Shown piece after piece: positions 41,461 through 55,581 of a stretch of DNA of 64,000 nt. The stretch spans positions 971,831 through 1,035,830 of the forward strand of contig CP097973.1 in NCBI GenBank assembly GCA_023703655.1. Reading direction: 5' to 3'. The notes beneath the pieces were generated by a model. It did not search any database. It worked only from the letters and a program-made list of their open reading frames with translations, and was not told where the DNA came from. Position 1 is the stretch's first letter. Each line of letters opens with the position of its first letter. This DNA comes from SAR86 cluster bacterium (lineage in GTDB: Bacteria; Pseudomonadota; Gammaproteobacteria; Magnimaribacterales; D2472). The position numbers were made by a program, and so were the translations under genes.

Positions 41461-41799
41461 TTAACCACTTTTTAGCTGGTCTGTTTTAGCTGCGCATATA
41501 AAATCATTCATATGAAGTCCTTTGATTTTATGGGACCACCAAGTAACTCTAACGCTGCCCCACTCGAGTAAAATTGCTGGATGATGATCTTCAATTTCTG
41601 CCATTTCTGCAACATTGGTAGCAAAATTAATTGAATCTTGGTAATTACTAAATGTATATACCTTAACAAGCTTATTTATTTCTTCTTTCACTATCTCCCA
41701 ACCAGGCAAGTCACTCATCAATTCACTATATTCAGCTTCATCAACTAAGGGCGCATCTATCGTGCACGCAACACATTTTTGCCCTTTTAAATTTTTCAC
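41461..41799 (-). CDS. phhB: Pterin-4-alpha-carbinolamine dehydratase
   Basis: CVAC, EDHHPAI, WWSHKIKGLHMNDFICAAK. Confidence 0.93.
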   Translation of the reverse strand: MKNLKGQKCVACTIDAPLVDEAEYSELMSDLPGWEIVKEEINKLVKVYTFSNYQDSINFATNVAEMAEIEDHHPAILLEWGSVRVTWWSHKIKGLHMNDFICAAKTDQLKSG

Positions 41800-43184
41800 T
41801 TGAGTCCGCCCTTAGTAAGATTGGCTGGATTCAATATTGATTTAAGTTTTTTTATTTGAATACCAGTAATCTCATGAGCAACTTCAATAACTGATCTATT
41901 TTCTTTGTATGCTTTTTTTGCAATTAAGGCTGCCTTCTCATATCCGATCTCGCGGTTAAGCGCAGTTACTAAAATGGGATTCTTTGAAACTGATAAAGAG
42001 ATATTTTCTTTATTTACTTTAAAGGTTCGTATGCCCTTCTGTGCAAGAAATTCACAAGAATTAGCCATAAGGGTGATTGATTTCAAAAGATTGTAGGCGA
42101 TGACTGGAAGCATTACATTGAGTTGAAAGTTTCCAGATTGATTTGCATAAGATATAGTTAAATCATTTCCCATAACATCTGCAGCAGCCATCATTACAGC
42201 CTCAGATACAACTGGATTCACTTTGCCTGGCATAATGCTACTGCCTGGTTGTAAAGCCTCAAGCTCTATTTCACTTAAGCCATTCATTGGACCGCTATTC
42301 ATCCATCGCAAATCATTAGAAATTTTTAGAATAACCAAAGAAAGATTTTTTACTGCGGTTGATAGATTTGTAGCAGCATCCTGGCTGCTAAGAGATTTAA
42401 AATAATTTGAAGAGGTTCTGAATCTAAGTTTTGTGAGCTTTGAGGCTTCCTCTGCAAAAATCTTTCCGAACTGTTTTGGTGCATTAATTCCCGTTCCAAT
42501 TGCAGTGCCTCCTTGAGGAAGACTAAGGACGGGGTTTAGTGCTAGTTCTATGTATTTCTTTTGATCCTCTAATTGAGCGATCCATCCCGACAACTCTTGA
42601 GAGAAGTTAAGAGGCATAGCATCCATTAAATGCGTTCTACCGGTTTTAGTAATTTTCGCAACGGCAGATTTTTTCTTCTGCAATTCTTTAAGCAATAAAT
42701 TTAATTTGGGGAGCAGAAGTCTAGAAATATCAATTGCAGCCGATATGTGGATAGCAGTTGGGATTACATCATTACTACTTTGACTCATGTTCACATGATC
42801 ATTTGGATGAATTTTTACTCGCGCTCTCTTTGTTGCAATATTTGCAATTACTTCGTTGGCATTCATGTTGGTGCTAGTCCCTGATCCAGTTTGAAAAATA
42901 TCTAGTGGAAATTGATCATCATATTTACCTTCAAGAACTTCTCTTGCTGTTTGTTGAATAAATTTAGCTTTTTTAGTGTCAAGTAATTTTAGTTTTTTAT
43001 TTGTAATTGCAGCAGAGTACTTAATAATGCCAAGTGCCTCTATGAATGACCTACCAAATGGAAAAGCAAATTTTATTCCACTAATTTTGAAGTTTTCCAA
43101 AGCGCGTTGTGTTTGAGCTCCCCACAATGCATCTTTTGGCACTTGAATCTCGCCAAGTGAATCTTTTTCTATTCGATATTTCAT
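41796..43184 (-). CDS. fumC: Class II fumarate hydratase
   Basis: WGAQTQR, QTGSGTSTNMN, GRTHLMDA, GSSIMPGKVNP. Confidence 0.97.
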   Translation of the reverse strand: MKYRIEKDSLGEIQVPKDALWGAQTQRALENFKISGIKFAFPFGRSFIEALGIIKYSAAITNKKLKLLDTKKAKFIQQTAREVLEGKYDDQFPLDIFQTGSGTSTNMNANEVIANIATKRARVKIHPNDHVNMSQSSNDVIPTAIHISAAIDISRLLLPKLNLLLKELQKKKSAVAKITKTGRTHLMDAMPLNFSQELSGWIAQLEDQKKYIELALNPVLSLPQGGTAIGTGINAPKQFGKIFAEEASKLTKLRFRTSSNYFKSLSSQDAATNLSTAVKNLSLVILKISNDLRWMNSGPMNGLSEIELEALQPGSSIMPGKVNPVVSEAVMMAAADVMGNDLTISYANQSGNFQLNVMLPVIAYNLLKSITLMANSCEFLAQKGIRTFKVNKENISLSVSKNPILVTALNREIGYEKAALIAKKAYKENRSVIEVAHEITGIQIKKLKSILNPANLTKGGLK

Positions 43185-43232
43185 AAATTTTGCAATTTGG
43201 TTAAACTATTTTACACGCTTGAGGGAAAAAAG

Positions 43233-44042
43233 ATGTCAAAAGTTGTACCTTTAAAAATTGATACTGATTTAGGTAAATTGCCTTTAAAAGAAAAAGGCTT
43301 AGATATGATTGATTTTAAATCGACCGAGGAGCTTAGAAGAAATCAGTTAGAAAAATTAGTTGCGGGATTTAGATTGTTTTCATATTTTGGATATGATGAA
43401 GGTGTTGCAGGACATATCACGTTTAGAGATCCTGAATTTGATGATCATTTTTGGGTAAATCCACTTGGTGTTCATTTTGGACAAATCAAAATATCTGATT
43501 TATTGCTTGTTAATCATGATGGAGAGGTTGTTCAGGGCGATAGGCCAGTAAATGTAGCAGCATTTGCAATTCATTCAAGACTTCATAAAGCAAGACCTGA
43601 TGTAAATGCCGCCGCTCACTCACACTCTTTATACGGCAGAACCTTCTCATCTTTGGGCAAAAAAATTGATCCAATCACACAAGATGCATGTGCATTTTAT
43701 GAGAGACAAGCTATTTATGAGGACTTTTCAGGCGTTGTTGAAGAAACTGATGAAGGAGACAGAATTGCCTCTGCACTTGGTGACAAACAAGTACTCATTC
43801 TTAAGAATCATGGGATTTTAACAACAGGTAGTTCTGTAGATATTGCTTTGTGGTACTTTTTGTCGATGGAAAAATCATGTCAAGCACAACTTATGGCAGA
43901 AGCAGCAGGCACTCCAGAACTTATACCTCACGAAACCGCTATCAAAACACGTGAATTTATAGCAAATGAAGTTGCCTTGTGGGCAAGCTATCAGCCTATG
44001 TTTGATATGATTGTTGAAAAGCAGCCAGATCTTCTTGATTAA
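43233..44042 (+). CDS. Class II aldolase/adducin-family protein
   Basis: EGVAGHIT, AFAIHSRLH, HSHS, LKNHG; ATG 43233 follows GAGGG. Confidence 0.9.
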   Translation: MSKVVPLKIDTDLGKLPLKEKGLDMIDFKSTEELRRNQLEKLVAGFRLFSYFGYDEGVAGHITFRDPEFDDHFWVNPLGVHFGQIKISDLLLVNHDGEVVQGDRPVNVAAFAIHSRLHKARPDVNAAAHSHSLYGRTFSSLGKKIDPITQDACAFYERQAIYEDFSGVVEETDEGDRIASALGDKQVLILKNHGILTTGSSVDIALWYFLSMEKSCQAQLMAEAAGTPELIPHETAIKTREFIANEVALWASYQPMFDMIVEKQPDLLD

Positions 44043-45463
44043 TTTCCAATAATAGCTTTTGTTTCAAGACATTCATGAAGCCCAAGCATGCCATGCTCGC
44101 GACCATTTCCAGAAGTTTTAAATCCACCAAAAGGTGCTGATGGTCCTCTACTTCTTCCGCCATTAATAGAAATTTGTCCAGCTCGTATCTTATTAGCTAC
44201 TTGTTTTGCTCTTTCAGGGTTTCCAGACTGAACATAGCCAGCCAAACCATATGGCGTATCATTGGCAATCTCTACAGCCTCATCTTCAGTTTCATACTTA
44301 AGAATACTTAACACTGGTCCGAAAATTTCTTCTCGTGCAATAGTCATATCATTCGTTACATCAGAAAAGATTGTTGGCTTTACAAAAAAACCCTTTTCAA
44401 AACCATCAGGTAATTCTGAACCTCCAGTGACCAGTTTTGCGCCCTCCTCAACTCCAAGATCAATTAATCTCTTAACCTTTTCGTATTGCGTTCTATTTGA
44501 TATTGGACCAATTTTAGTGCCGTCCTCATTTGGATAACCAACTACTGTGGCTTCTGCAGCAGCTTTAGCAATTTTAACTGCATCATCGTATTGTGATGCA
44601 TGAACAAGCATTCTGGTAGGTGCATTACATGATTGTCCTGTATTTAAGAAACATAAATTTACTCCCGCTGATACAGCTTTTTCAAGATCAGCATCATCTA
44701 GGATAATATTTGCAGATTTTCCACCTAGTTCTTGTGCTACTCTCTTTACAGTGGGAGCTGAAGACTGAGCTACAGCAATTCCAGCTCTGGTAGATCCTGT
44801 GAAATGCATCATATCAACATCTGGATGAGTAGAAAGTGCATCACCAACAACAGGTCCAAGGCCATTTACAAGGTTAAAGACACCATTTGGTAGATCTGAT
44901 TTCTCAATCACTTTAGCAAGATGAATACCACAGAATGGAGATATTTCACTTGGCTTTAGAACCATTGTACAGCCAGCTGCAATTGCTGAAGCAACCTTTG
45001 TACTCATTTGATTCATTGGCCAATTCCAAGGAGTGATCATGCCAATTACACCAATTGGTTCTTTACGTATGAGAAATGATTCGCCATCTTCCTCAAAATC
45101 AAATTCTTTTAAGACTTCTAAGGTATCTTTAAAATGTTGAAGCCCTGAGGTAACTTGAGCAACTTTTGAAAGCCATAATGGTGCTCCCATTTCTTCACTG
45201 ATGATCGCAGCAAGTTCTTCAGATGAGTCCTCATAATTTGTAATAATTGATTCTAGAAGTGCGATTCTTTCATCTTTAGATGATGACCCAAATGTTGCAA
45301 AAGCATTTTTTGCTGCTTCAACAGCATCTGAAATATCTTCTTTAGATCCAGCTGCAATGGTTCCAATAATTTCTTCTGTGGCCGGATTTTCAACTTCAAT
45401 GATTTCAGTGGATGAAGGATCAACCCACACTCCATTTATAAAAAATTTATGTTCTTCTTTCAT
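44039..45463 (-). CDS. Aldehyde dehydrogenase
   Basis: ITPWNWP, FTGST, QELGGKS, GQSCNAP, EEIFGPV, PFGGFK. Confidence 0.95.
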   Translation of the reverse strand: MKEEHKFFINGVWVDPSSTEIIEVENPATEEIIGTIAAGSKEDISDAVEAAKNAFATFGSSSKDERIALLESIITNYEDSSEELAAIISEEMGAPLWLSKVAQVTSGLQHFKDTLEVLKEFDFEEDGESFLIRKEPIGVIGMITPWNWPMNQMSTKVASAIAAGCTMVLKPSEISPFCGIHLAKVIEKSDLPNGVFNLVNGLGPVVGDALSTHPDVDMMHFTGSTRAGIAVAQSSAPTVKRVAQELGGKSANIILDDADLEKAVSAGVNLCFLNTGQSCNAPTRMLVHASQYDDAVKIAKAAAEATVVGYPNEDGTKIGPISNRTQYEKVKRLIDLGVEEGAKLVTGGSELPDGFEKGFFVKPTIFSDVTNDMTIAREEIFGPVLSILKYETEDEAVEIANDTPYGLAGYVQSGNPERAKQVANKIRAGQISINGGRSRGPSAPFGGFKTSGNGREHGMLGLHECLETKAIIGN

Positions 45464-45483
45464 AGTCTTATTTGTTTTTTTGA

Positions 45484-46899
45484 TTATACCCTGTTGCTCT
45501 TAAATGCATCAATCGCTCTTATTCGTGATGATTTTAAATCAACAATAGGATTATGATAATCAATATTATTTAAAAGATCACTCTTTGGAAGATGAATATT
45601 CTTGTTGTCAACTGAATTCAGTGAAGGAATAAATTTTCTTATAAATTCTCCATCTGGATCAAAATTTTGTGATTGAGTCACTGGGTTGAATATTCTGAAA
45701 TATGGTGCTGCATCTGTCCCAGTAGAAGCACTCCATTGCCAACCTCCATTATTTGACGAAAAGTCACCATCTATAAGATTATTCATAAAATGTGCTTCTC
45801 CAATTCGCCAATCATGAAGAAGATTTTTTGTAAAAAACATAGCAACTACCATTCTCAATCGGTTATGCATCCATCCCTCTTGAGTTAGTTGTAACATTGC
45901 TGCATCAATGAAAGGGAACCCAGTTTTTCCATTTTTCCAAGCGTGGATTTCGTCTTGATTATTTCGCCATGCAATCGTTTCTGTTGAGAGGTTAAAAGGT
46001 TTGTTTTTGCTCACGTGCGGGAAGTTGTGCATGATGTTTCTGTAAAATTCTCGCCATACAATTTCATCTACCCACTTACAAATACCATTATTACCTGCAT
46101 CCAATTCAAAATTATTTTCTTTAATTGCCTCATAGATACATCTTCTTGGTGAAAGAATTCCAAGAGCTAAATATGGCGACAGTCTGCTTGTGGCATCCAA
46201 AAATGGATGGTTTCTATTCTTAGAATATAAGGTTATTGACTTTTCTATGAATAATTCCAGTCGCTTTCTAGCTTCAACCTCACCGGCTGGCCAAATTTCC
46301 ATATTTACTTGATGTGTTTGATTAAAAGAAATATTTTTTTTATCTTTGGGGTTTACTAATGCAAACTTATTTTTCTTTTTTGGGGCTTTATTGAAGTCAA
46401 ATAAATCTAACGAAAAGTTCTCGATCCATTTTTTTTTAAATGGGGTAAATACAGAAAAAGGTTTATCTTGTCCTGTTCTAAGGCTTCCTGGTGAAAAAAT
46501 TACCTGATCATGATATTGATGAAAATTTATATCTTGCTTTTGAAGGTATGCAATTAATTTTTGGTCACGATTATTCTCGTCGTATCCAAATTCGTTGTTC
46601 CAAAAAATTGCCTTGAACGCATTGATTGCAATATATTCTTTGATGAGTTCAACAGAGTCATCAAAAGTATCAACCTCAAATGAACAAAGATCTATGTTTA
46701 GCTGCTGTAACTCATTTTTAAGTTTTGCTAAATTTTCTAAGACAAAATGCTCTTTAACATTAGAGTTATTATTTTTGTACCATGTTTTTCTGGAGAAAAT
46801 ATATATACAACTAACCTCATCATATGCTTCGCATGCATTTAAAAATGCTGGATTATCATCAATCCTGAGATCAGATCGTAACCATACAAGCGCTTTCAA
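45484..46899 (-). CDS. phrB: CPD DNA photolyase
   Basis: WLRSDLRIDDN, TSRLSPYL, WREFY, GWMHNRLRM, NNGGWQW, PYFRIFNP. Confidence 0.96.
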   Translation of the reverse strand: MKALVWLRSDLRIDDNPAFLNACEAYDEVSCIYIFSRKTWYKNNNSNVKEHFVLENLAKLKNELQQLNIDLCSFEVDTFDDSVELIKEYIAINAFKAIFWNNEFGYDENNRDQKLIAYLQKQDINFHQYHDQVIFSPGSLRTGQDKPFSVFTPFKKKWIENFSLDLFDFNKAPKKKNKFALVNPKDKKNISFNQTHQVNMEIWPAGEVEARKRLELFIEKSITLYSKNRNHPFLDATSRLSPYLALGILSPRRCIYEAIKENNFELDAGNNGICKWVDEIVWREFYRNIMHNFPHVSKNKPFNLSTETIAWRNNQDEIHAWKNGKTGFPFIDAAMLQLTQEGWMHNRLRMVVAMFFTKNLLHDWRIGEAHFMNNLIDGDFSSNNGGWQWSASTGTDAAPYFRIFNPVTQSQNFDPDGEFIRKFIPSLNSVDNKNIHLPKSDLLNNIDYHNPIVDLKSSRIRAIDAFKSNRV

Positions 46900-47882
46900 C
46901 TTATTAACTCCATAATTTGTTCCTTAAGAATTTGTCTATTTGAACTGACTAAATCACTAGAGTTATTTCTATGATCAATATCAAAATTTTCAATACTTAA
47001 TCTTTTGATGAATCCTAGTTTTTCGTATTTTTTTATATGATTCTTGAATCTAATAGGCGCATTTATCCTTTTAGGGTAAATAGTCGATACTGGTCGACCA
47101 CTAGATATAGACTCAGATATCATCATAGCACTATCTTCAGTTACAAAGATATGTGCTGAAATGGAAAATGCATTTGATAGATCAAAATTTGAGGATCCTG
47201 CATGAAATAAACCACTTTCCTTATGGTCAATGAAAGCGTCTAATGCAAGTGCTAACTTCCTCTCTACATTTGGATTGGTTCGCCTTGATGTAACCAAACA
47301 TATTTCTTTTTCATGTTTGTTTGCAATCTTTTTAACATTGTTTATAAAGCTATCCCATTCAGTATCTGAATATTCATAACCAATTCCCTTTCCTCCAATA
47401 CAAAATAAGATATGACTATCTTTGTTAGAAAGCTGATTGATTGTATTAGGAGAATATTTATTTGGAGTAATATCAGCAACTACATTATTTTCACTATCAA
47501 AATATCTCTCTGAGGTAACAATGGCTGTAAAGTTTGATGCCGGCAAACCCCTAGGAGAGCCTAATTGAATGCTTTTGGTGACTTGAAGGAATTGTATTGC
47601 AGAACATACAGCAGCTGTATTTCCACCTGACGCAATAATTAAATCATATTTATCAAGCAGATTAATAGAATATGTCCAAAGTATAAAATTTGCTTTCGTT
47701 TTACTAATATTTTTTGACAACAATCTACAAAGAAATCGTGTTATCGATCTCAAAAAATGTATTCTTGGCGTTACATAAATGACAGAAAAATTACTGTATG
47801 ATCTTCCAAAAAGTAGATGCATCATTCCAAAAGATTGATTGAAATGTCCTGGAATGTTGTCGCTTAATATACAAATTTTCAT
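46896..47882 (-). CDS. ELM1/GtrOC1-family putative glycosyltransferase
   Basis: LSD..PGHFNQS, IGG, VTSRRT, VTEDSAMMISE. Confidence 0.88.
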   Translation of the reverse strand: MKICILSDNIPGHFNQSFGMMHLLFGRSYSNFSVIYVTPRIHFLRSITRFLCRLLSKNISKTKANFILWTYSINLLDKYDLIIASGGNTAAVCSAIQFLQVTKSIQLGSPRGLPASNFTAIVTSERYFDSENNVVADITPNKYSPNTINQLSNKDSHILFCIGGKGIGYEYSDTEWDSFINNVKKIANKHEKEICLVTSRRTNPNVERKLALALDAFIDHKESGLFHAGSSNFDLSNAFSISAHIFVTEDSAMMISESISSGRPVSTIYPKRINAPIRFKNHIKKYEKLGFIKRLSIENFDIDHRNNSSDLVSSNRQILKEQIMELIS

Positions 47883-47891
47883 GATTATTCA

Positions 47892-48644
47892 TTATAAATA
47901 TTTACTTTGGTATTTTTTAAATAAGAGATCATGTGCGAGCTTTTTTTCTACATCTAAGATGTCATCATGTCGATCGACTCCAATAATTTTTTCTTTCGAA
48001 AGAAGTCCTGTAATAGGAATATCATTTTCAAGAAATCTCATCATATCAATTGATTCGAGTTGCTCGCATAAGGTCGTCTCTAGAGATACATATTGTTTTA
48101 GCATGAAACTTGTAAAACCGATAATGCCAAGTTGGCGATAGAATTTTTCAGCATTGTTTGGAATTACTGATCGTGAAAAATAAATGATTTCATTCAATTT
48201 ATTCAATATTACTTTCACAACATCTTCGCTAGTTGCTTCAGCTTTATTGATTTCAATCACTTGATTCACAATCTCTGCACCCTCAGTTAATTTTTTGATC
48301 ACAGAATTTATCTCTGAAGGCAAAACTAGTGGTTCGTCGCCTTGAATGAGAATTGTATGTGAATATGTTTCACCCTGATCAGCTTCCAACATTCTAAGGG
48401 TCTCTTCAGCTCTTTCAGATGCTCTTTCATGCAAATTACTAGTAATAATAGCGGGAATATTTCTTTCAAAACACCAATCACGAATCACAGTATTTGGTGT
48501 AGAAATAACTAATTCGTCACAATCTGACATTGAGGCCCTCTCATAACAATGAGCTATCATGGGTATTCCCAGAATATTTTCTAATGGTTTGCCAAAGAAC
48601 CTTGATGATTCCATTCTGGCTGGAATAACTCCCAATACTTTCAT
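47892..48644 (-). CDS. kdsB: KdsB-like CMP-ulosonate synthetase (divergent)
   Basis: IPARMESSRFFGKPL, IQGDEP, YFSR; RQLG and ESIDMMR replace canonical HIG and EKLEQLR. Confidence 0.82.
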   Translation of the reverse strand: MKVLGVIPARMESSRFFGKPLENILGIPMIAHCYERASMSDCDELVISTPNTVIRDWCFERNIPAIITSNLHERASERAEETLRMLEADQGETYSHTILIQGDEPLVLPSEINSVIKKLTEGAEIVNQVIEINKAEATSEDVVKVILNKLNEIIYFSRSVIPNNAEKFYRQLGIIGFTSFMLKQYVSLETTLCEQLESIDMMRFLENDIPITGLLSKEKIIGVDRHDDILDVEKKLAHDLLFKKYQSKYL

Positions 48645-48650
48645 AATTGT

Positions 48651-49379
48651 TTACTTGAAAGGTGATCTAGCCATCACATCCAGCATTCTAAAATCTACAC
48701 TGTATGCGATCATTGAAAAACCCTTTTTTGAAAGAGCATCGATGCTCTTTGGCTCAGGTTCAACTTGATGAAAGCCACAATAAATTTTATATTTTTTTGT
48801 ATAATCAATTACCTTTTTTTCAGCTTTCTTAAATTCTCTTGAATTGAAGTTTCCAGGATCACCAAAAGATAATGAAAGGTCATATGGACCAATGAAACAT
48901 CCGTTTATAGGTAAGCTGAAGATCTCATCCAAATTATCGAGAGCAATCTTGGATTCTATTTGAAAGAACACTTCTATTTTTTTAGATTGCGTTTTTATGT
49001 ATTTATTTTTGACAATTTTTTCTCCAAAACCTTGGGCTCTATAAAGGCCCATGCTGCGCTTGCCCCTTGGAGGATAAAAGCAAGCGTCGATAATTGCCTT
49101 GCCTTGTTGAAAAGTCTCAATCATTGGAGCAATAATCCCTGATGCTCCAGCATCAAGCATTCTTTTAATCTGATCTGTGCTATCAGATGTAATTCTCACA
49201 TAGGATTTTTTCTTATTTGCATCTATGATTCTGATCAGATTTTCTGCCTGATCAAGACTCATAGTTGAGTGCTCTAAATCAATGACAATCCAATCATAAG
49301 GAGATTTTGCAATGATCTCTGTAATTTGTTCATTTGGAATGGTAATCCAAGTTCCAATTGATATTTTTTGTTTAGGCAT
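48651..49379 (-). CDS. HpcH/HpaI-family pyruvate aldolase
   Basis: IDLEHS, VRI, KRMLDAGA, YPPRGKRS, QIES, IGPYDLS. Confidence 0.9.
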   Translation of the reverse strand: MPKQKISIGTWITIPNEQITEIIAKSPYDWIVIDLEHSTMSLDQAENLIRIIDANKKKSYVRITSDSTDQIKRMLDAGASGIIAPMIETFQQGKAIIDACFYPPRGKRSMGLYRAQGFGEKIVKNKYIKTQSKKIEVFFQIESKIALDNLDEIFSLPINGCFIGPYDLSLSFGDPGNFNSREFKKAEKKVIDYTKKYKIYCGFHQVEPEPKSIDALSKKGFSMIAYSVDFRMLDVMARSPFK

Positions 49380-49382
49380 ATG

Positions 49383-50321
49383 CTAGTCTCCTAAGCCATT
49401 TATGGCTGCTATCCCCATTGATTGTATGCCCTGCTCAGTCAGACTCGCCCTGTGTGATGAGGCAAAGAAATTATCTAATTTGAGCAGTGGGGATTTGAAT
49501 GCTGGTTCATGTTCAAAAACGTCAAAAGATGCAAAAGCTAAATTATTATTTTTAAGAAATTTATATAATTCCACCTCATCAACAATACCTCCTCTTGAGG
49601 TATTAATCAAAATTATGGATTCTTTCATTTGCTTAAAAGCATCCTTATTGATCATATTTTTGGTACCTGAGCTCAAAGGTACGTGAATGCTGACGATGTC
49701 CGACGTTGAAAGTACTTCTGAGATTGATGCTTGTTTTAAATTCTTATCATTAAATTTATCTATTTCAGCTGAAGAAAATTTCCTCTCATCAAAAAATAAA
49801 ATCTTATTACCAAATGGTTTCAATAAGCTTACTAAACAAGATCCAATATTTCCAAATCCAATAATTCCAATTTTTTTACCTTTTAGCTCTTGCCCTTTTG
49901 CTTGAGTCCAATTTCCCTCAATGATCTCTGTTTTATTATTATGAACTTGTCTAAGGGAATTCAGCATTAATAAGAGAGTAAATTCTGCAACGGATTGTTT
50001 ATTACTGCCTGGTTGAAATTTAATCTGAATATTTCGTTTCTTGCACTCACCAAGATCTAAGTTATTCAATCCTACTCCATATTTGCTAATGAGTTTTAAT
50101 TTTGGAAGTTGGTCCAAAATATCTTTATCGATGATCTCTATCCCCACAATAGCTTTATCGGCATTGGCTAAAAATTTCACAAGTTCATTTTCTTTTAAAG
50201 TCTTACCAGTCAAATTCAGCGATACGTTTGGATATGATTCTTTTAATTTTTTTACAAGAAACTGGTTGGTTGAAAATGATCTAGAGGTAACAGCCACCAG
50301 ACTGTCATCAAACTTTGCCAT
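49383..50321 (-). CDS. D-isomer-specific 2-hydroxyacid dehydrogenase (SerA-like, no ACT domain)
   Basis: SKYGVG, GIIGFGNIG, HVPL, INTSRGG, DVFEHEP. Confidence 0.9.
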   Translation of the reverse strand: MAKFDDSLVAVTSRSFSTNQFLVKKLKESYPNVSLNLTGKTLKENELVKFLANADKAIVGIEIIDKDILDQLPKLKLISKYGVGLNNLDLGECKKRNIQIKFQPGSNKQSVAEFTLLLMLNSLRQVHNNKTEIIEGNWTQAKGQELKGKKIGIIGFGNIGSCLVSLLKPFGNKILFFDERKFSSAEIDKFNDKNLKQASISEVLSTSDIVSIHVPLSSGTKNMINKDAFKQMKESIILINTSRGGIVDEVELYKFLKNNNLAFASFDVFEHEPAFKSPLLKLDNFFASSHRASLTEQGIQSMGIAAINGLGD

Positions 50322-51045
50322 TTGTGAACTCTGCGTCTAGTCTAAATTTATTATCTGCAGTTGACATACTGATTTTGCCACCAGCCTCCTTAACAATTAT
50401 TGCACCAGCGGCAATGTCCCATAAAAAAATACCTTCCTCTCTATATATTTCAGCTTTTCCTGCGGCAACAAATGTGTTGGCAATTGCAGCAGACCCAATC
50501 ATTCTCACTTTTTTCCAACATTTGAAGTCGTCAATCATTCTTGAGAAATACTCCTTTGAGTATTCCTTTTTAGATGGAATTCCAGTTACGATAGTACCTT
50601 TGGAATGTTCAGATATATTTGAAACAGTTATTCTTTTATTATTTACAAATGCTCCTTTTTCCTTGGATGCAAAATAAAGATTCTCACTAAAAAAATCGTT
50701 AATAACACCAAGAATCGGCTCATTATTATGCATAAGTGCTATTGAAACTGCGCAGATCGGAATATTTCTAAAATAGTTTGATGTTCCATCTAAAGGATCA
50801 ATTACCCAAAAAGCTGATCCAAGATTACCTTTATGGCCAAATTCTTCTCCAAGAATTGGCAAATTTGATCTTGTGGAAATATATTCAGTGATTAGGTTTT
50901 CAGCATCTTGATCAATTTGAAGTTTTATATCCCTGCCATCGTCTACTAAGATTTTTTGGGCATCATTGTTTGCGGAGATTAAAAATTTACCAGCAAGTAA
51001 AGCAGCATCTTTTGCAATCTCAAGACTTTTATCAATATCAATCAT
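50308..51045 (-). CDS. Inositol monophosphatase-family sugar phosphatase
   Basis: GEE, WVIDPLDGTSNY, WDIAAG; likely start MIDIDK at 51045. Confidence 0.92.
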   Translation of the reverse strand: MIDIDKSLEIAKDAALLAGKFLISANNDAQKILVDDGRDIKLQIDQDAENLITEYISTRSNLPILGEEFGHKGNLGSAFWVIDPLDGTSNYFRNIPICAVSIALMHNNEPILGVINDFFSENLYFASKEKGAFVNNKRITVSNISEHSKGTIVTGIPSKKEYSKEYFSRMIDDFKCWKKVRMIGSAAIANTFVAAGKAEIYREEGIFLWDIAAGAIIVKEAGGKISMSTADNKFRLDAEFTNGKV

Positions 51046-51622
51046 TTGAATCTTTGAAGATGGCACGAAAATAGGAACCAACTAAACCACAAATTACCAT
51101 GTGAAGATCTTCAGCAGGACCATACTCTCCAATCTTTGTAGGTACATGAATATTCAAATCTGTGTTCTGTTTAAGATATCCCCCATCAAATGCTGTTAGA
51201 GATACCGTGAAAATGTTGTGTTTTTTTGACCAATCAATAGCTTTAATTAGATTTTGCGAATTACCGGATGCAGAAATGCATACTAAAGTATCACCAGCAT
51301 CAGCTTGAGTTTGCAATTGCTGCAAAAAAATATTTTCATATCCATCATCATTAGCTATGGCTGTGATTACAGCTTGATTATCACATAAACTAATTGCCTT
51401 AAATGGATTTTCAAACTGTCTGCTTCCTAAAGATATGTCATTAACGAAATGACTTGCAGTTGAAGCACTGCCACCATTTCCAATAAAAAAAATCTTTCTA
51501 TTATTCTCTCTAACATCTAATATTTGATTAATAAATCTTGCAATGTCCTCATTGCTTAGTTTCTCCAACAATGAAGATAAATATTTCAAATAATCTGCCG
51601 AAAATTCTTTTGGTGAATTCAT
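51038..51622 (-). CDS. GmhA-like SIS-domain phosphosugar isomerase
   Basis: GNGGSASTASH, TAIANDDGY, ISASGNSQN, AEDLH. Confidence 0.9.
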   Translation of the reverse strand: MNSPKEFSADYLKYLSSLLEKLSNEDIARFINQILDVRENNRKIFFIGNGGSASTASHFVNDISLGSRQFENPFKAISLCDNQAVITAIANDDGYENIFLQQLQTQADAGDTLVCISASGNSQNLIKAIDWSKKHNIFTVSLTAFDGGYLKQNTDLNIHVPTKIGEYGPAEDLHMVICGLVGSYFRAIFKDSND

Positions 51623-52647
51623 TCAAAAACTCTCTCTGCCCATTTTGAATCAGATTCATATATCTTTTCAATTAATTGCATGATTTTCATAGCGTCATCT
51701 ATATTACTAGTTTTGATTGGCTTATCGTTAGTAATTGCATGAAGGAAATAATTTATTTCTTTGTCCCATGATAAATCATTTTTGAAAGTCTCGATTTTCT
51801 CGTCTAATGAGGTATCTCTTGAATCTGGATTATGTCTAATAATAATTAATTCCTCCTCTCCATAGCTTTTTGATCCACTCAAAATTCCTTGCATAATGAT
51901 TGAACCCTGTTGCAATGTAATTTCTAAATTAAATTTATGTCTCCATTGAGTAGCAGATGAGTGTATTTGTGCAACTATACCTTCATCGGACCTCATGATT
52001 GCAAAGGCATTATCTTCTACGTCATGACCCCAAAATGCATTATCTACGAAACTATGAATTTCTGTAAATTCCTGATTTGAAAAATAACTTATTAAATCGA
52101 GCATATGAATGCCTTGATCTAACAAAATTCCTCCTCCCGCTTGATTACGTTTTGATCTCCAATCAGTTTGATCAAAAGTGATAATCTTTGATTTGCCGTA
52201 TGTGCCTTTCAAATTTACTATTTTTCCAAGTTGCATAGAATCAATAACTTGCTTTGCTAAAATTGCGGATTCATGAAATCGATGATTAAATCCGTACATA
52301 AGCTTAAGTGACGGATTTGCTTTAGATATTGATATTATTTCGTTTAATTCAGCGGAAGTTCTAGCTGGTGGTTTTTCGCAAAAAACATGTGAACCTTTCT
52401 TGAGAGCCCTTGCGGTTGCATCTTTTGCATACAAATTAGGTAGGCTTACAAATGCAACGTCAAAGTCAATGGTTTCAATTAGAGTAATGTAGTCATCAAA
52501 CAAAGCAATACTCTTGTCTAGACCAACTAGATTTTCTTTTTTTTGATCAGAAACTGCAACTATTGAAAGATTGGGTATATTTTTAAGGATATCGAATCGT
52601 CTCGATCCAACTACACCAAAACCAAGAATACCAATTTTTAGTGGCAT
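51619..52647 (-). CDS. Gfo/Idh/MocA NAD(P)-dependent sugar oxidoreductase
   Basis: GFGVVG, HVFCEKP, GFNHRF, GGGILLDQGIH. Confidence 0.92.
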   Translation of the reverse strand: MPLKIGILGFGVVGSRRFDILKNIPNLSIVAVSDQKKENLVGLDKSIALFDDYITLIETIDFDVAFVSLPNLYAKDATARALKKGSHVFCEKPPARTSAELNEIISISKANPSLKLMYGFNHRFHESAILAKQVIDSMQLGKIVNLKGTYGKSKIITFDQTDWRSKRNQAGGGILLDQGIHMLDLISYFSNQEFTEIHSFVDNAFWGHDVEDNAFAIMRSDEGIVAQIHSSATQWRHKFNLEITLQQGSIIMQGILSGSKSYGEEELIIIRHNPDSRDTSLDEKIETFKNDLSWDKEINYFLHAITNDKPIKTSNIDDAMKIMQLIEKIYESDSKWAERVFE

Positions 52648-52652
52648 GTTAA

Positions 52653-53759
52653 CTATGACTTTTTATATGTAACCCTATAAATCATATTTGCTTTATCATC
52701 AGAAATAAGGAGGGTACCATCAGACATCTCAAAAGGTGCTGCCGGCCTTCCAAGAACAGTCTCTCCCTCTAAAAAACCAGTAAGAAAATCTTTGCTATCA
52801 ACAACATTCCCATCGTTATCAAACATTACTCTTATAACTTTGTAGCCAACTTTGGACGATCTATTCCATGATCCATGCAATGTAATGAATGCATTATTTC
52901 TATATTCTTTTGGAAAATGATTGCTTTCGTAAAACTCAATTCCTGTTGGAGCGACATGGGCACCAAGTTCAAGAATAGGATCCTTGTATGCAAATCCATG
53001 CTCATAATCTCCAAATTCTGGATCATCAACATTCATGGCATGACGGTAAGGAAAACCAAAAAATTCGCCTTTGAAGTCTAAAACGTTTAGTTCGCAATCT
53101 GGTGAATCATCCCCTAACCAGTCTCTTCCGTTATCTGTAAAATATAATTTTCCATTTGTCGGATGCCAATCAAATCCAACCGAATTCCTCACCCCATTAG
53201 CTTCAATTTGCCAACTACCATTTTCAAATCTCATTATGGAAGCAAATCTTTTATCATCTTTTAAACACACATTGCACGGCGCACCTACATTTACGAGAAA
53301 ACTGCCATCTTTATCAAATTTTATCCATTTACGCCCATGCCAACTGTCGTTAGGTAATTCATCAGTAATTAATTGAAGTTTAAATTCTTCAATTTGATTT
53401 TTATCAAGCATGGTTTCAATATCTTCAACTTTCCAAATCTTGCCTACTTCTGCTATGTAAAGATTTCCATCATGGAATGCGACGCCAGCAGGATCATTCA
53501 AGTTATCTGCAATCAGGATATTTTGATCAATAGTTCCATTTTTATCTGTATCTTTAATAGCGTGTACTTGACCCGATTTAGTGCCTACAAAAATGTAACC
53601 TTTGTTTCCCTCTGACATCTGTCTGGGTGTATTAATTCCATCAGCAAAGACGGAAATTTCAAAGTTATCATCAATAATAAGATTGTTAACAACATCGTTG
53701 TTGGCTCTTAATTGGAAAGGTGTAAAAATAAGTAAAATTATTAAAATGTAATGTATCAT
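52653..53759 (-). CDS. Secreted glucose/sorbosone dehydrogenase-family beta-propeller
   Basis: Signal peptide, GAPCNVC, GVRNSVGFDW, TDNGRD, HVAPTG, HGSWNR, ISDD. Confidence 0.9.
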   Translation of the reverse strand: MIHYILIILLIFTPFQLRANNDVVNNLIIDDNFEISVFADGINTPRQMSEGNKGYIFVGTKSGQVHAIKDTDKNGTIDQNILIADNLNDPAGVAFHDGNLYIAEVGKIWKVEDIETMLDKNQIEEFKLQLITDELPNDSWHGRKWIKFDKDGSFLVNVGAPCNVCLKDDKRFASIMRFENGSWQIEANGVRNSVGFDWHPTNGKLYFTDNGRDWLGDDSPDCELNVLDFKGEFFGFPYRHAMNVDDPEFGDYEHGFAYKDPILELGAHVAPTGIEFYESNHFPKEYRNNAFITLHGSWNRSSKVGYKVIRVMFDNDGNVVDSKDFLTGFLEGETVLGRPAAPFEMSDGTLLISDDKANMIYRVTYKKS

Positions 53760-53779
53760 CGTTATAAGCCTTATATTTT

Positions 53780-55150
53780 ATGAATATCAGTATAGCAGTC
53801 GTAATATTTCTTTTAACCGTTTTTGCATCAATTAGTTTAAATGGAATTATGAGAAATATAGCAAAAAATAATAGATGGCTTATTGATATTCCTGATAAAA
53901 ATAGAAAATTTCATTTAACGCCCACTCCAGTCACTGGTGGTATTGCTATTCAAATTGCGATGCTGACAGGATTTTTGGCCTTATTTTTTCTTGCAGACTT
54001 TACCATTCAGAGTGAAATCAGAAATCTACCACTAACAAGCAACAGCATTAATGATGGTGACTTCCATAAAAAGAGTCTTAAACTTGAAAATAGCGATCAG
54101 AATGAAATATTTGACTTGCTCATAAGTGAAACTCAGTCAAATAATGAATCAGACTTTGAAGTTCAGCTCCAAGGCTCTGATGAGGTAGTTGAAATCAAGA
54201 TGCTTGAAAATGGAGTCTTCAGAGTAAATAACAATGGCAATTTTTCAGACTATGTCATTGAAAATGGCAACGTGGTTAGCTTGGCAGGTGATGTTAGTGA
54301 AAGCTATAAATTTTCAGGCTCAAAACCATTTGAAATAAATAAATTTGTTATTCTCTTCATAATATTTGGCTTGCTTCTGCAAGCTTTTACATTGGTTGAT
54401 GATGCTTGGGGTGTTAATCCAAAAATTAGGATTACCTTTCAAGTTCTTTTAAATTTATTATTTTGTCTTGCAAGTGGAATTTACGTTAATGACATTGGAT
54501 TTGGGATTGGTAATGAAAATATTCAATTAGGTTTTCTTGGAATACCATTTACTGTATTTTGCGTAACTGGGATCATTAACGCATTTAATATGATTGATGG
54601 AATAAATGGACTATGCGCATCAATGGTTATTTCTGCATTAATTGGATTCATAATCATCACGGGATTGGACGTTGTGAATTATGCTTTTGTAATTGCATTT
54701 GGGGGTATTTTTGGTTTTCTTATCTACAATTTAGGTGTAGTTGGTGAAAAAAGACGTGTTTTCTTAGGAGATAATGGTTCATCATTTCTTGGGTTTTTTG
54801 TTGCATGGGCATGCATATATTTATCATCGGCAGAAAATAACTTTTTTAACCCTGTTACAGCATTATGGTTAGTGTTTATTCCCTTCTTAGATTGTATGAA
54901 TGTAATATTGCAAAGAATGAGACGTGGCAAAAAACTTTTTAGTCCAGATAGAAACCATTTACATCATTTGCTAATGAAACGTGAAATAAATCCTTTGACT
55001 GTATTAAGTTATATTTTTCTGATATCTCTCTTTTTTGTTTTCATTGGAATTTCGCTAGATTATTTTGGAATTAGTGCATCAATATCTTTATTATTATTTT
55101 TAATCTCTGGTTCAATTTATTTATACTTTACTCAAAGGCTATCAGAATAA
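53780..55150 (+). CDS. wecA: WecA/MraY-family UDP-HexNAc:polyprenyl-P HexNAc-1-P transferase with large insert
   Basis: DIP..RKFH..PTP..GG, VDD, NAFNMIDG, FLGDNGS, DRNHLHH. Confidence 0.9.
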   Translation: MNISIAVVIFLLTVFASISLNGIMRNIAKNNRWLIDIPDKNRKFHLTPTPVTGGIAIQIAMLTGFLALFFLADFTIQSEIRNLPLTSNSINDGDFHKKSLKLENSDQNEIFDLLISETQSNNESDFEVQLQGSDEVVEIKMLENGVFRVNNNGNFSDYVIENGNVVSLAGDVSESYKFSGSKPFEINKFVILFIIFGLLLQAFTLVDDAWGVNPKIRITFQVLLNLLFCLASGIYVNDIGFGIGNENIQLGFLGIPFTVFCVTGIINAFNMIDGINGLCASMVISALIGFIIITGLDVVNYAFVIAFGGIFGFLIYNLGVVGEKRRVFLGDNGSSFLGFFVAWACIYLSSAENNFFNPVTALWLVFIPFLDCMNVILQRMRRGKKLFSPDRNHLHHLLMKREINPLTVLSYIFLISLFFVFIGISLDYFGISASISLLLFLISGSIYLYFTQRLSE

Positions 55151-55581
55151 TGTTTTCATTCTTTAAAAGAGATAATGTTCAAAAAGAATTGGATGATAAT
55201 ACTAATTCATTTCAAGAAGTCATTTCTGTTATTTGTATAATGCTGGAAATAAGTAGATTGGATGGAAAAGTAGATGAAAGTGAAATTGAGGAAATTAAGA
55301 AATACTTTGATAAGAACTTTGATGATACAAATTTTGAAGAAACTCTTGCTGAACTTCAACAAAAGTCATCTGAGGAAACTTCATTTCATCCATATGTGGA
55401 ATCGATCAATAGTAATTGTGTGAAAGAGGAAAAAATTGAAATTATGAAAATAATTTGGAAATTAATTTTATCTGACGGAGTCATTGATCCATATGAAGAT
55501 AATCTTTTCATGCAAATTGGCGATCTTTTATTTATTAAAAGATCTGAATTAATGAAAATCAAAAATTTAGGGTCTAGCTAA
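55150..55581 (+). CDS. TerB-family protein
   Basis: LDGKVDESE and LSDGVIDPYE repeats typical of TerB. Confidence 0.85.
   Translation: MFSFFKRDNVQKELDDNTNSFQEVISVICIMLEISRLDGKVDESEIEEIKKYFDKNFDDTNFEETLAELQQKSSEETSFHPYVESINSNCVKEEKIEIMKIIWKLILSDGVIDPYEDNLFMQIGDLLFIKRSELMKIKNLGSS

Follow-up and report, generated by a model that had tools for sequence, protein, structure and literature searches.

A probable surface-glycan precursor module with an HpcH/HpaI aldolase and a KdsB paralogue in a SAR86 cluster bacterium

Introduction

The canonical CMP-Kdo pathway (KdsD, KdsA, KdsC, KdsB) consists of an isomerase, a PEP-dependent synthase that forms the carbon-carbon bond of a 2-oxo-4-hydroxy acid, a HAD-type phosphatase and an activating cytidylyltransferase. 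The locus described here offers the same slots, with a SIS isomerase, a carbon-carbon bond-forming enzyme that would give the same type of acid, a phosphatase and a KdsB-family activator that keeps the CTP and Mg motifs. Unlike the Kdo route, however, it would condense with a metal-dependent HpcH/HpaI aldolase instead of KdsA, its isomerase is GmhA-like and its phosphatase of the IMPase type, it has two extra oxidoreductases, and its cytidylyltransferase stays below the KdsB equivalog cut-off and does not have the residues that contact Kdo.

Group 2 capsule systems (kps region 1/3; KpsF, KpsU, KpsC, KpsS) likewise have a further KdsB paralogue, dedicated to the glycan, next to isomerase and transferase genes, but KpsU retains the canonical residues at the sugar site and depends on KdsA, aldolase and dehydrogenases are absent, and the transferases are KpsC and KpsS rather than an ELM1 protein. 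Nonulosonic acid pathways (NeuB/PseI/LegI with NeuA/PseF/LegF) also provide CMP-activated 2-ulosonic acids for surface glycans. Their synthase is a PEP-dependent member of the NeuB family and their cytidylyltransferase is of the NeuA type, whereas the activating enzyme here is KdsB-type and NeuB was not found in a search of the genome.

The aldolase shares its Pfam family and catalytic residues with the HpcH/HpaI class II enzymes (HpaI, YfaU/RhmA, GarL, SwHKA). To our knowledge, these are catabolic enzymes or biocatalytic tools, and none has been described beside a cytidylyltransferase. Hydroxypyruvate is accepted as a donor within this family by SwHKA, according to excerpts of the report (PMC10099721). 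Finally, Acinetobacter baumannii GtrOC1 and other ELM1 proteins of LOS outer-core loci, which belong to the same PF06258 family and GT-B clan as the last protein of our locus, are predicted glycosyltransferases of lipooligosaccharide loci; the excerpted text (PMC4172580) describes such loci without an aldolase and cytidylyltransferase module. No description of a module like the present one was found in a literature search that covered only a minority of subscription journals.

Results

The window, that is, the whole stretch of 64,000 nucleotides analysed, contains the following genes:

51619-52647, minus strand: Gfo/Idh/MocA NAD(P) oxidoreductase (Gfo), 342 aa; PF22725 4.6e-25, PF01408 4.5e-14
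51038-51622, minus strand: GmhA-like SIS sugar-phosphate isomerase (SIS), 194 aa; PF13580 4.9e-17
50308-51081, minus strand: IMPase-family phosphatase, 257 aa; PF00459 8.1e-51; TTG start uncertain
49383-50321, minus strand: D-isomer-specific 2-hydroxyacid dehydrogenase (2HADH), 312 aa; PF02826 6.2e-51
48651-49379, minus strand: HpcH/HpaI class II (metal-dependent) 2-oxoacid aldolase, 242 aa; PF03328 2.2e-30
47892-48644, minus strand: KdsB-like cytidylyltransferase (KdsB paralogue), 250 aa; PF02348 9.5e-32
46896-47882, minus strand: ELM1-family GT-B fold protein (ELM1), 328 aa; PF06258 6.7e-23
44039-45463, downstream of the seven-gene run: aldehyde dehydrogenase

A sequence-only reading had taken positions 46896 to 52647 for a seven-gene operon. 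All seven minus-strand ORFs are present there, in the families it had named, and they abut or overlap (intergenic distances of -44 to +9 nt from the ORF coordinates), but the limits of the unit are not fixed by this. Ten genes (44039-53759) make up the co-directional, tightly packed run: downstream, the end of ELM1 and the beginning of the photolyase gene share 4 nt, and upstream a GSDH-like gene ends 5 nt from the Gfo gene. Since close packing is genome-wide (the window has a coding fraction of 98% and a median same-strand gap of 2 nt, with at most 10 nt between the two genes in 26 of 37 same-strand pairs), spacing alone does not define operon limits. A promoter and terminator scan of the locus gave no signal above shuffles. 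As a weak indication, contigs from four marine RNA libraries (four studies) match each of the seven genes over part of its length, with an identity of at least 95%, and span the SIS/Gfo and 2HADH/IMPase junctions, although such matches do not demonstrate transcription.

The operon had also been said to be without a PEP-dependent synthase. In agreement with this, no DAHP_synth_1 (KdsA-type) or NeuB gene lies within the seven-gene run, and both DAHP_synth_1 genes of the genome are distant from it. A separate canonical set is present elsewhere: KdsA (NF003543, 385 bits vs a cut-off of 242) and KdsB (TIGR00466, 226.6 vs 155.2) are encoded in housekeeping contexts (pyrG-kdsA-eno and lpxK-kdsB-murB), and WaaA is also encoded away from the module. 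The KdsB-like protein is therefore not the only KdsB of the genome but a paralogue, and, given the canonical Kdo genes and the lack of NeuB, only the aldolase is left as a candidate for making a second ulosonic acid.

The KdsB paralogue is 30% identical to the canonical KdsB of the same genome. It scores below the cut-off of TIGR00466 (135.4 vs 155.2), passes that of the Kdo cytidylyltransferase subfamily NF003952 (198.1 vs 193) and reaches only 22.5 bits against the PseF model. In a quick tree, 65 aldolase-linked KdsB-like proteins with 13 phylum labels were separated by one branch (SH-aLRT 99) from 29 canonical KdsB, all of these from a single class, the Gammaproteobacteria. The linked clade retains the CTP and Mg motifs (PAR..SR..K, QGDEP, GVD). 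In contrast, the His and Tyr of the sugar site and the LEQL motif, each found in 29/29 canonical KdsB, are changed: His to Gln in 64/65, Tyr to Ile in 57/65, LEQL to [VI]DM and, in addition, SG to R[AC]. As motifs, KH.G.Y.Y becomes [KR]Q...I.F, E.LEQLR becomes ES[VI]DM.R and H.SG.DR becomes H.R[AC].DR. The altered C-terminal motifs noticed earlier in the window's protein, RQLG and ESIDMMR, are both there. For E. coli KdsB, an excerpt of the structural report (PMC12199768) has the C5-OH of Kdo hydrogen-bonded by Q98 and Y185. As judged from the alignment, the module protein is a diverged paralogue with its Kdo-contacting residues replaced, and it presumably activates a ulosonic acid other than Kdo with CMP.

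The aldolase is the only HpcH-family protein of the genome and is encoded in 13 of 61 related genomes, a count that includes the genome of the window. Its clade falls below the cut-off of every curated NCBIfam equivalog (for example HpaI, 137.3 vs 368.8), and the nearest solved structures are YfaU, HpaI and GarL. All 10 orthologues compared share H37, R62, E142 and D167, which we equate with the catalytic His, Arg, Glu and Asp residues of HpaI, and an H-x-V-E-P stretch particular to this clade is likewise invariant. The aldolase is presumably the carbon-carbon bond-forming step and a core member of the module. The 2HADH, found in 9/9 relatives' loci, is a core member too; its best NCBIfam match is PGDH (209.9 bits vs a cut-off of 454), and among solved structures it is closest to short phosphoglycerate dehydrogenases and to glyoxylate reductases.

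Searching 185,579 species genomes, we confirmed 234 relatives of the aldolase and examined the best 80 loci, which include four close kin of the window. All counts out of 80 refer to this best 80 of 234. A KdsB-like gene was found within 8 kb of the aldolase in 64/80 loci, on the same strand in 62 of the 64 and directly adjacent in 35. Among the 16 loci without one, nine stop no more than 3 kb away from the aldolase, leaving seven full-length loci with an aldolase but no KdsB-like gene. The 2HADH was present in 62/80, Gfo in 37/80 (homologues 45-50% identical across phyla), SIS in 24/80 and IMPase in 14/80; ELM1 was seen in only 4/80, all close kin. In loci L045 and L048, the order Gfo-SIS-IMPase-2HADH is identical. 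Cultured carriers include Polynucleobacter and Bacteriovorax strains (L045 and L083). Neighbours among the best 80 include Wzy/O-antigen ligase, GT2, flippase and sulfotransferase genes, as well as AT3-SGNH acyltransferases and FkbM and other methyltransferases. Proteins of TIGR04326, TIGR04331 (LIC12162 family transferase) or TIGR04396/BFO_1060 occur in 25/80, and NeuB genes are co-resident in 10/80. In excerpts of PMC5420450, genetic evidence links the Tannerella BFO_1060 family with the transfer of CMP-pseudaminic or CMP-legionaminic acid derivatives, and, as far as these go, TIGR04331 and TIGR04396/BFO_1060 are families that the aldolase loci share with nonulosonic acid transfer. KdsA above the cut-off was absent from two module-bearing Chloroflexota MAGs, whose completeness is not known.

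Aldolase and cytidylyltransferase are thus strongly co-conserved across phyla in glycan loci, as the sequence-only reading would lead one to expect for this core. Its extension to all seven genes does not hold: they occur together in one of nine relatives' loci and in one further MAG.

Gfo is far below all NCBIfam equivalog cut-offs (for example IolG, 104.9 vs 355), is the sole copy in the genome by tblastn, and is an accessory member of what we call the type A form of the module (7/9 relatives' loci). SIS, a variable member (3/9), is the only GmhA-like gene of the genome; its best NCBIfam match is TIGR00441 gmhA, phosphoheptose isomerase (100.4 bits vs 209.45), and residues 37-175 align to solved GmhA. 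The IMPase resembles module-embedded IMPases from other phyla (134-182 bits) more than either paralogue in its own genome (87 and 50 bits) and is likely the dephosphorylating step, albeit separable from the module in this lineage: it is kept between the GSDH-like gene and the photolyase in 7/7 module-less relatives examined. ELM1, for which there was no NCBIfam match, occurs in 6/9 module-bearing and 1/7 module-less relatives; neither it nor the IMPase is therefore dedicated to the module here, contrary to the earlier view of both. Its AlphaFold2 model (pLDDT 96.4) has a GT-B fold with no outstanding structural match. The fold is generic and gives no sign of the donor, and so does not bear out the suggested CMP-dependent transferase; ELM1 is a possible glycosyltransferase, loosely tied to the module.

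Discussion

Taken together, our data suggest that the region is probably a surface-glycan precursor module with a conserved core of aldolase, 2HADH and KdsB paralogue, and likely provides a previously uncharacterised, aldolase-dependent route to a CMP-activated ulosonic acid other than Kdo. The GmhA-like isomerase and Gfo would prepare a sugar phosphate, and the aldolase would join the sugar aldehyde to a 2-oxo acid, either pyruvate or hydroxypyruvate made by the 2HADH from glycerate or 3-phosphoglycerate. The resulting 4-hydroxy-2-oxo acid would be a Kdo-like 2-ulosonic acid, but not Kdo; the Kdo-, Kdn- or Dha-like product and the order of reactions put forward in the sequence-only reading are likewise inferred. 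As the counterpart of KdsC, the IMPase-family phosphatase may take off the phosphate before the KdsB paralogue attaches CMP and a glycosyltransferase, in this lineage perhaps the adjacent ELM1 protein, consumes the CMP-sugar. The functional pairing of aldolase and cytidylyltransferase is the best-supported step and transfer by ELM1 the weakest. If correct, a Kdo-like acidic sugar would be built and activated with a pyruvate-type aldolase taking the place of the customary synthase, by a core set that recurs in surface-sugar clusters of many bacterial phyla with no described function.

As a counter-point, a route to a 2-ulosonic acid offers no firm position for the 2HADH. Proteins of the 6-phosphogluconolactonase family (TIGR01198 above cut-off) occur in 14 of the best 80 of 234 loci and adjoin the dehydrogenase in L043 and L097, which hints at other chemistry, from aldose phosphate through aldonate phosphate to 2-oxo-aldonate; the aldolase would then be hard to place.

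The product might instead be ordinary Kdo, with the aldolase joining D-arabinose or its 5-phosphate to pyruvate and the cytidylyltransferase acting as a capsule-specific CMP-Kdo synthetase of the KpsU kind. Capsule loci are known to encode a second enzyme of this type, and a kpsFEDUCS cluster has been found on a plasmid; the NF003952 cut-off is passed, and the isomerase and phosphatase parallel KdsD and KdsC. We nevertheless consider this quite unlikely: the sugar-site His, Tyr, LEQL and SG that KpsU and 29/29 canonical KdsB keep are replaced in 57 to 65 of the 65 linked proteins, the TIGR00466 equivalog is failed, a full KdsA and KdsB route already exists in the genome, and the two extra oxidoreductases would have no role. 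Very improbable, in our view, is a catabolic or salvage route in which Gfo oxidises an aldose, the aldolase cleaves a 2-keto-3-deoxy acid, the 2HADH processes the fragments and the cytidylyltransferase recycles free ulosonic acid. Gfo-type aldose dehydrogenases and HpcH-family aldolases do cooperate in non-phosphorylative sugar oxidation, the closest solved aldolases (YfaU, HpaI, GarL) are catabolic, and an aldehyde dehydrogenase lies downstream. However, this gene and the photolyase are syntenic in relatives with or without the module, Pfam and NCBIfam profiles found no aldonate dehydratase, transporter or regulator in the seven-gene run, and the cross-phylum partners are glycan-assembly genes, with the cytidylyltransferase gene on the aldolase strand in 62/64 and abutting in 35.

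It is also conceivable, though rather unlikely, that only 2HADH, aldolase and cytidylyltransferase form a functional unit, with Gfo, SIS, IMPase and ELM1 doing other jobs, such as that of a housekeeping phosphatase or of a transferase that adds to the core oligosaccharide from a common nucleotide sugar. Retention of the IMPase in all seven module-less relatives and of ELM1 in one fits this, as do the absences among the nine module-bearing relatives (ELM1 from three, SIS from six, Gfo from two), a second ELM1 in the genome that adjoins a GT4 gene, and the abutting genes found throughout the genome. Against it, distant phyla also have homologues of Gfo, SIS and IMPase alongside the trio, in unchanged order (as in L045 and L048), Gfo identity is maintained across them, the window's IMPase is nearer to their module IMPases than to its own paralogues, and SIS and Gfo have neither a second copy nor another evident pathway in the genome. 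In line with the module as proposed, alternative enzymes occupy its phosphatase position: among 44 strictly clustered loci, the IMPase pairs with Gfo (11/13), and a HAD phosphatase pairs with the Gfo-less type (14/15).

A packed gene module at a constant chromosomal site

The stretch 46896–52647 holds seven ORFs on the minus strand, each abutting or overlapping its neighbour, and Pfam matches bore out all seven gene families that a sequence-only reading of this DNA had assigned to them.

Genes of the module and their Pfam matches (all within 46896–52647, minus strand)
Gfo/Idh/MocA oxidoreductase (Gfo): PF22725, 4.6e-25
SIS isomerase: PF13580, 4.9e-17
IMPase-family phosphatase: PF00459, 8.1e-51
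D-2-hydroxyacid dehydrogenase: PF02826, 6.2e-51
HpcH/HpaI aldolase: PF03328, 2.2e-30
CTP_transf_3 (KdsB-like) cytidylyltransferase: PF02348, 9.5e-32
ELM1 protein: PF06258, 6.7e-23

The first five proteins each scored below every curated NCBIfam equivalog cut-off. The seven genes had been called an operon, which holds as far as abutting genes on one strand go; however, the packed co-directional run comprises ten genes (44039–53759), and close packing prevails throughout the window, which is 98% coding, with a median same-strand gap of 2 nt and spacings of ≤10 nt in 26 of 37 same-strand pairs. A class I photolyase gene (NF007955, 494 bits versus a cut-off of 506) begins at a TTG that overlaps the ELM1 stop by 4 nt (46896–46899), so that the packing runs on into an unrelated housekeeping gene. 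A consensus scan of 44000–56000 did not give an operon boundary: promoter-like sites numbered 46 (57.3 ± 9.0 in shuffles) and terminator-like sites 8 (5.7 ± 2.3 in shuffles). Four marine RNA libraries, each from a different study, yielded contigs (≥95% identity) that cover portions of all seven genes and span the SIS/Gfo (51472–51748) and dehydrogenase/IMPase (50114–50346) junctions, although in some runs parts of the stretch had no contig; such a contig is no proof of transcription or of a single transcript, and the gaps are likewise uninformative.

Of 61 related genomes, counting that of the window, 13 gave a match to the aldolase; the share is 9 of 36 within the family and two of eight among the remaining genus members. 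Across the nine loci from the family the site of the module is constant, with a GSDH-like beta-propeller gene on one side and the photolyase and an aldehyde dehydrogenase gene on the other. IMPase, dehydrogenase, aldolase and cytidylyltransferase are present in all nine, Gfo in seven, ELM1 in six and SIS in three, and all seven genes occur jointly in one. Module-gene identities among these loci (44–73%) equal those of the flanking genes, and vertical descent with gene loss would fit this pattern. The IMPase gene is kept between the same flanks in all seven aldolase-lacking relatives examined, and the ELM1 gene in one of them (G009); thus, both are separable from the other module genes in this lineage. 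The end of the GSDH-like gene (52653–53759, minus; PF07995 1e-09, DUF7133) lies 5 nt upstream of Gfo, and this gene keeps its position in relatives with or without the module.

Aldolase and cytidylyltransferase are linked across phyla

A profile built from ten aldolase orthologues was searched against 185,579 species, one genome each, and gave 234 confirmed relatives, of which the best 80 loci, four being close kin of the window, were analysed. These include Prochlorococcus, Pelagibacteraceae, Rhodobacteraceae, Polynucleobacter, Legionella, Leptospira, Bacteriovorax, Nitrospina, Elusimicrobiota, Acidobacteriota and Chloroflexota, among others.

Partners of the aldolase in the best 80 of 234 loci (tblastn with window proteins, ≤8 kb from the aldolase)
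KdsB-like cytidylyltransferase: 64/80 (35 directly adjoining the aldolase, 62 on the same strand)
2-hydroxyacid dehydrogenase: 62/80
Gfo: 37/80 (45–50% identity even between phyla)
SIS: 24/80
IMPase: 14/80
ELM1: 4/80 (close kin only)

Since a genome carries roughly one cytidylyltransferase gene, the association with the aldolase is far beyond chance. The KdsB-like gene was not found in 16 of the best 80 loci, nine of which end less than 3 kb from the aldolase and seven of which have full flanks. The gene set was expected to be co-conserved, and this holds for the core trio of aldolase, dehydrogenase and cytidylyltransferase, whereas Gfo, SIS, IMPase and ELM1 follow it only in part. The module is likely both real and widespread.

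Against module IMPases from other phyla the window IMPase reaches 134–182 bits, compared with 87 and 50 bits for the two paralogues encoded elsewhere in its own genome; by these scores its descent is that of a genuine module gene, although relatives keep it alone. An inositol reading, in which the IMPase would act with an IolG-like Gfo, was set aside, as inositol-1-phosphate synthase was not found in the single-contig genome.

The cytidylyltransferase is a diverged paralogue of KdsB

The host genome is one contig of 1,325,892 bases (G+C about 33%) and carries a separate canonical set: KdsA about 690 kb away in a pyrG-kdsA-eno context (NF003543, 385 bits versus 242), KdsB in an lpxK-kdsB-murB context (TIGR00466, 226.6 versus 155.2), and WaaA. 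The module cytidylyltransferase, 30% identical to this canonical KdsB, is therefore a paralogue, and the possibility that it is the only KdsB of the cell, activating plain Kdo, falls away. It scored under the cut-off of the KdsB equivalog TIGR00466 (135.4 versus 155.2) and narrowly above that of the looser Kdo subfamily model NF003952 (198.1 versus 193).

We set 65 aldolase-linked sequences against 29 canonical KdsB sequences from the host genome (G000) and 28 genomes of its class. The alignment has 94 rows, 90 of them distinct, with three linked rows representing contigs reached twice; the locus of an unpublished genome (G099) was excluded. A single branch (SH-aLRT 99) separates linked from canonical sequences in a quick IQ-TREE tree. 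Both sets retain the CTP and Mg motifs PAR..SR..K, QGDEP and GxD, which are present in 64–65 of the 65 linked sequences, and they diverge at the signature positions:

Signature positions in 29 canonical and 65 aldolase-linked sequences
KH.G.Y.Y: canonical, His 29/29 and Tyr 29/29; linked, Gln at the His position 64/65, and Ile 57/65 and Phe 62/65 at the two Tyr positions
LEQL region: canonical, LEQL 29/29; linked, Ser 65/65 preceding [VI]-Asp (62/65)-Met (62/65)
H.SG.DR: canonical, Ser 25/29 and Gly 28/29; linked, Arg 65/65, then Ala or Cys 61/65

The His, Tyr, LEQLR and SG.DR residues of the Kdo site are substituted in the window protein, as they are in 57–65 of the 65 clade members. A search of plasmids with the KdsB-like protein returned 69 records, none above 36% identity. 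The one plasmid locus inspected encodes KpsU, a known second CMP-Kdo synthetase, in a kpsFEDUCS capsule cluster without the aldolase; used as a comparator, this KpsU retains every canonical Kdo-site residue.

The His, LEQLR and SG.DR positions of the signature are presumably Kdo-site residues of KdsB. Residues Q98 and Y185 of E. coli KdsB hold the C5 hydroxyl of Kdo (PMC12199768), and the C-terminal domain of KdsB is known to bind Kdo (PMC3149649). On the simplest reading of the substitutions, the substrate would be a pyranose acid resembling Kdo but distinct from it around C5 and further on. As a speculation, the extra Arg, being invariant, may point to an additional negative charge on the substrate.

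Glycan context and two architectural types

Pfam annotation of eight loci and of representatives of the commonest ORF clusters showed that the neighbours of the module are glycan-assembly genes, encoding Wzy/O-antigen ligase, GT2 proteins, Polysacc_synt flippases, an ABC exporter, sulfotransferases, AT3-SGNH acyltransferase, FkbM and other methyltransferases, and DegT aminotransferases. NeuB is co-resident in 10 of the best 80 loci, and large proteins (about 600 aa) of the TIGR04326, TIGR04331 or TIGR04396/BFO_1060 families are found in 25. NCBIfam names TIGR04326 a "surface carbohydrate biosynthesis protein" and TIGR04331 a "LIC12162 family transferase", and the titles of the partner families read "hypothetical equivalog" or "surface carbohydrate biosynthesis protein". 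Genetics in Tannerella tie BFO_1060-family proteins to the transfer of pseudaminic or legionaminic acid derivatives (PMC5420450), and in Herbaspirillum a LIC12162-family gene adjoins neuABC (PMC6679464).

Two types could be drawn from the 44 loci in which aldolase and cytidylyltransferase both fall in strict clusters. Type A (n = 21) has Gfo and holds 9 of 11 SIS loci and 11 of 13 IMPase loci; the window module is of type A with IMPase. The Polynucleobacter bastaniensis locus L045 and locus L048 have the same Gfo-SIS-IMPase-dehydrogenase order as the window, with the aldolase-cytidylyltransferase block on the opposite side. In other type A loci, IMPase is replaced by an AroB-related "sugar phosphate phospholyase (cyclizing)" (TIGR04425, 450–470 bits versus 400). 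The AroB-like gene (in L037, L043, the Bacteriovorax locus L083 and others) usually comes with a FabG-like SDR gene and adjoins the 2-hydroxyacid dehydrogenase gene. Within the 44 loci IMPase and the AroB-like gene are mutually exclusive, which suggests two alternative fates of one phosphorylated intermediate.

Type B, without Gfo, has a HAD phosphatase (14 of 15 HAD loci) and an extended-SDR "epimerase", often together with a true 6-phosphogluconolactonase-family protein (TIGR01198, 183 and 152 bits versus 124); examples are L097, L043, L072, L082 and L107, among others. L097 additionally encodes hexapeptide acyltransferases and an FkbH-domain protein. The type B product is probably a different sugar, perhaps acylated.

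The phosphatase slot, taken by IMPase, HAD or the AroB-like phospholyase, argues by analogy with the step from KdsA to KdsC that a phosphorylated intermediate would be made and then freed.

Candidate chemistry of the core trio

Residues H37, R62, E142 and D167 of the aldolase are invariant in the ten orthologues and presumably correspond to the His, Arg, Glu and Asp that serve catalysis in HpaI. The protein fell well below the named equivalogs (HpaI 137.3 versus 368.8, RhmA 120.8 versus 441, GarL 107.8 versus 393), and its nearest solved relatives by profile were YfaU, HpaI, GarL and the hydroxypyruvate-using SwHKA (E 1e-47 to 1e-40). Solved-structure searches for Gfo, dehydrogenase, aldolase and SIS gave distant relatives only. 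SwHKA is described as an HpcH/HpaI-family enzyme for which hydroxypyruvate is a usable donor (PMC10099721). Donor preference could not be read from residue F210 of SwHKA; the position is poorly placed, and the pyruvate user YfaU also has a Phe nearby.

The dehydrogenase has its Pfam domains and most resembles glyoxylate reductases and the short, archaeal-type phosphoglycerate dehydrogenases; for phosphoglycerate dehydrogenase and glyoxylate reductase alike it scored below the equivalog cut-off (209.9 versus 454 and 180.5 versus 455, respectively). It could supply the donor, oxidising glycerate to hydroxypyruvate or 3-phosphoglycerate to 3-phosphohydroxypyruvate, in which case the product would be a 3-hydroxy (Ko-type) acid. 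Alternatively, its substrate could be an aldonate phosphate, oxidised at C2, that Gfo or an SDR forms together with the lactonase-like protein. Lactonase-like genes adjoin the dehydrogenase gene in L043 and L097, a hint in favour of the aldonate phosphate, and enzymes of this dehydrogenase family that act on 2-keto-6-phosphogluconate exist. Both placements are chemically sensible, and we prefer neither. The SIS protein scored under the GmhA cut-off (TIGR00441, 100.4 versus 209.45), aligns with solved GmhA and retains the SxSGNS stretch. A second GmhA-like gene and a second HpcH-family gene were looked for in the host genome and not found.

The ELM1 protein has a generic GT-B fold

The module was proposed to end in a CMP-dependent ELM1 transferase. 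The protein scored 81.7 bits against PF06258 (gathering cut-off 27) and had no match in NCBIfam; a profile search recovered 3214 relatives at E ≤0.001. Its structural model, built from 135 sequences (pLDDT 96.4), has the two Rossmann domains of a GT-B fold. Foldseek and a Foldseek-independent search both placed it as a plain GT-B protein, with matches from Z 15.4 down to 12.2 without a gap. UDP-GlcNAc 2-epimerases, NeuC, MGD1 and MurG tie at Z 15.4–14.2, BshA and heptosyltransferase II also tie (Z 15.4 to about 13), and WaaA appeared only at Foldseek rank 39 among generic GT-B matches, so that the donor is unreadable from the fold. Kinship with the TIGR04326 proteins of about 600 aa was not supported (hhalign probability 3.7%). 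Acinetobacter GtrOC proteins of the ELM1 family are described as predicted and unassayed transferases (PMC4172580). Given the generic fold, the lack of TIGR04326 kinship, the predicted-only status of GtrOC and the patchy linkage to the aldolase, a role of ELM1 as the CMP-dependent transferase of the module is possible but weak.

A second ELM1-family gene (G000:C1:754734-755429; L007:1468-2385), whose product is 20% identical to the module ELM1, lies directly upstream of a GT4 glycosyltransferase gene, in what is probably the LOS core region.

A possible aldolase-based route to CMP-ulosonic acids

To our knowledge, a PEP-dependent synthase opens every textbook route to a CMP-activated 2-ulosonic acid, be it Kdo or sialic, pseudaminic or legionaminic acid. 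As anticipated, KdsA and NeuB were not found among the ten co-directional genes of the locus, nor was NeuB found in the host genome. The Kdo pathway has the same slots for isomerase, condensing enzyme, phosphatase and cytidylyltransferase, but in the module the condensing enzyme comes from another superfamily and the activating enzyme lacks the defining Kdo-site residues, which places the module outside that pathway. KdsA was above cut-off in three of five module-bearing genomes searched (Prochlorococcus, Pelagibacteraceae and Leptospira). Kdo8P synthase was not found above cut-off in the other two, the Chloroflexota MAGs G140 and G141 (L047, L087), whose completeness is unstated and both of which have the aldolase-cytidylyltransferase pair.

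In full-text literature that largely leaves out subscription journals, we found no account of joint action between an HpcH-type aldolase and a KdsB-like enzyme. New CMP-linked C10 acids from Magnetospirillum are described in a 2026 preprint on the mining of nucleotide sugars; the portion available to us mentions neither aldolases nor KdsB.

We therefore put forward, as a tentative proposal to which we give rather less than an even chance, that the module represents a third, aldolase-based route to CMP-ulosonic acids beside those of KdsA and NeuB. The route would occur in at least a dozen phyla and in at least two types and would yield undescribed sugars, for example a 3-hydroxy Ko-type acid from hydroxypyruvate or a heptulosonic or heptulosaric acid; in this marine lineage, transfer of such a CMP-sugar would be shown for an ELM1-family protein for the first time. 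If true, joining a class II aldolase to a diverged KdsB in one conserved module would amount to a new biosynthetic logic, probably leading to new acidic cell-surface sugars. Carriers include abundant ocean bacteria (Prochlorococcus, Pelagibacteraceae and the streamlined gammaproteobacterium of the window) as well as members of freshwater, soil and host-associated groups, and such sugars affect phage attachment, grazing and particle stickiness. Systematic mis-annotation is likely, because the paralogues pass an NCBIfam model named after the Kdo enzyme. The module also gives a practical entry point to the ELM1, TIGR04326 and TIGR04331 proteins, which are uncharacterised.

Other observations

A metagenomic protein of 335 aa (P0001) that shares 98% identity with the KdsB-like protein is additionally annotated with PF04191 (phospholipid methyltransferase); its gene lies on a 1.5-kb contig, and either a fusion or an artefact of gene calling may explain it. 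Several genes near the module were also noted:

41796–43184, minus: fumarase/aspartase-type lyase, under both equivalog cut-offs, adjoining the next gene
43197–44042, plus: class II aldolase/adducin family protein (NF004855, 382 bits versus 255)
53780–55150, plus: WecA-like phosphoglycosyl transferase (456 aa), divergent from the cluster
55567–57747, minus: DUF3604 protein (726 aa)
57716–59539, minus: carboxylesterase-family protein (607 aa), overlapping the DUF3604 gene by 32 nt

The GT4 domain of the WecA-like protein begins only at residue 192, leaving a long N-terminal extension, and its gene is syntenic in many relatives.
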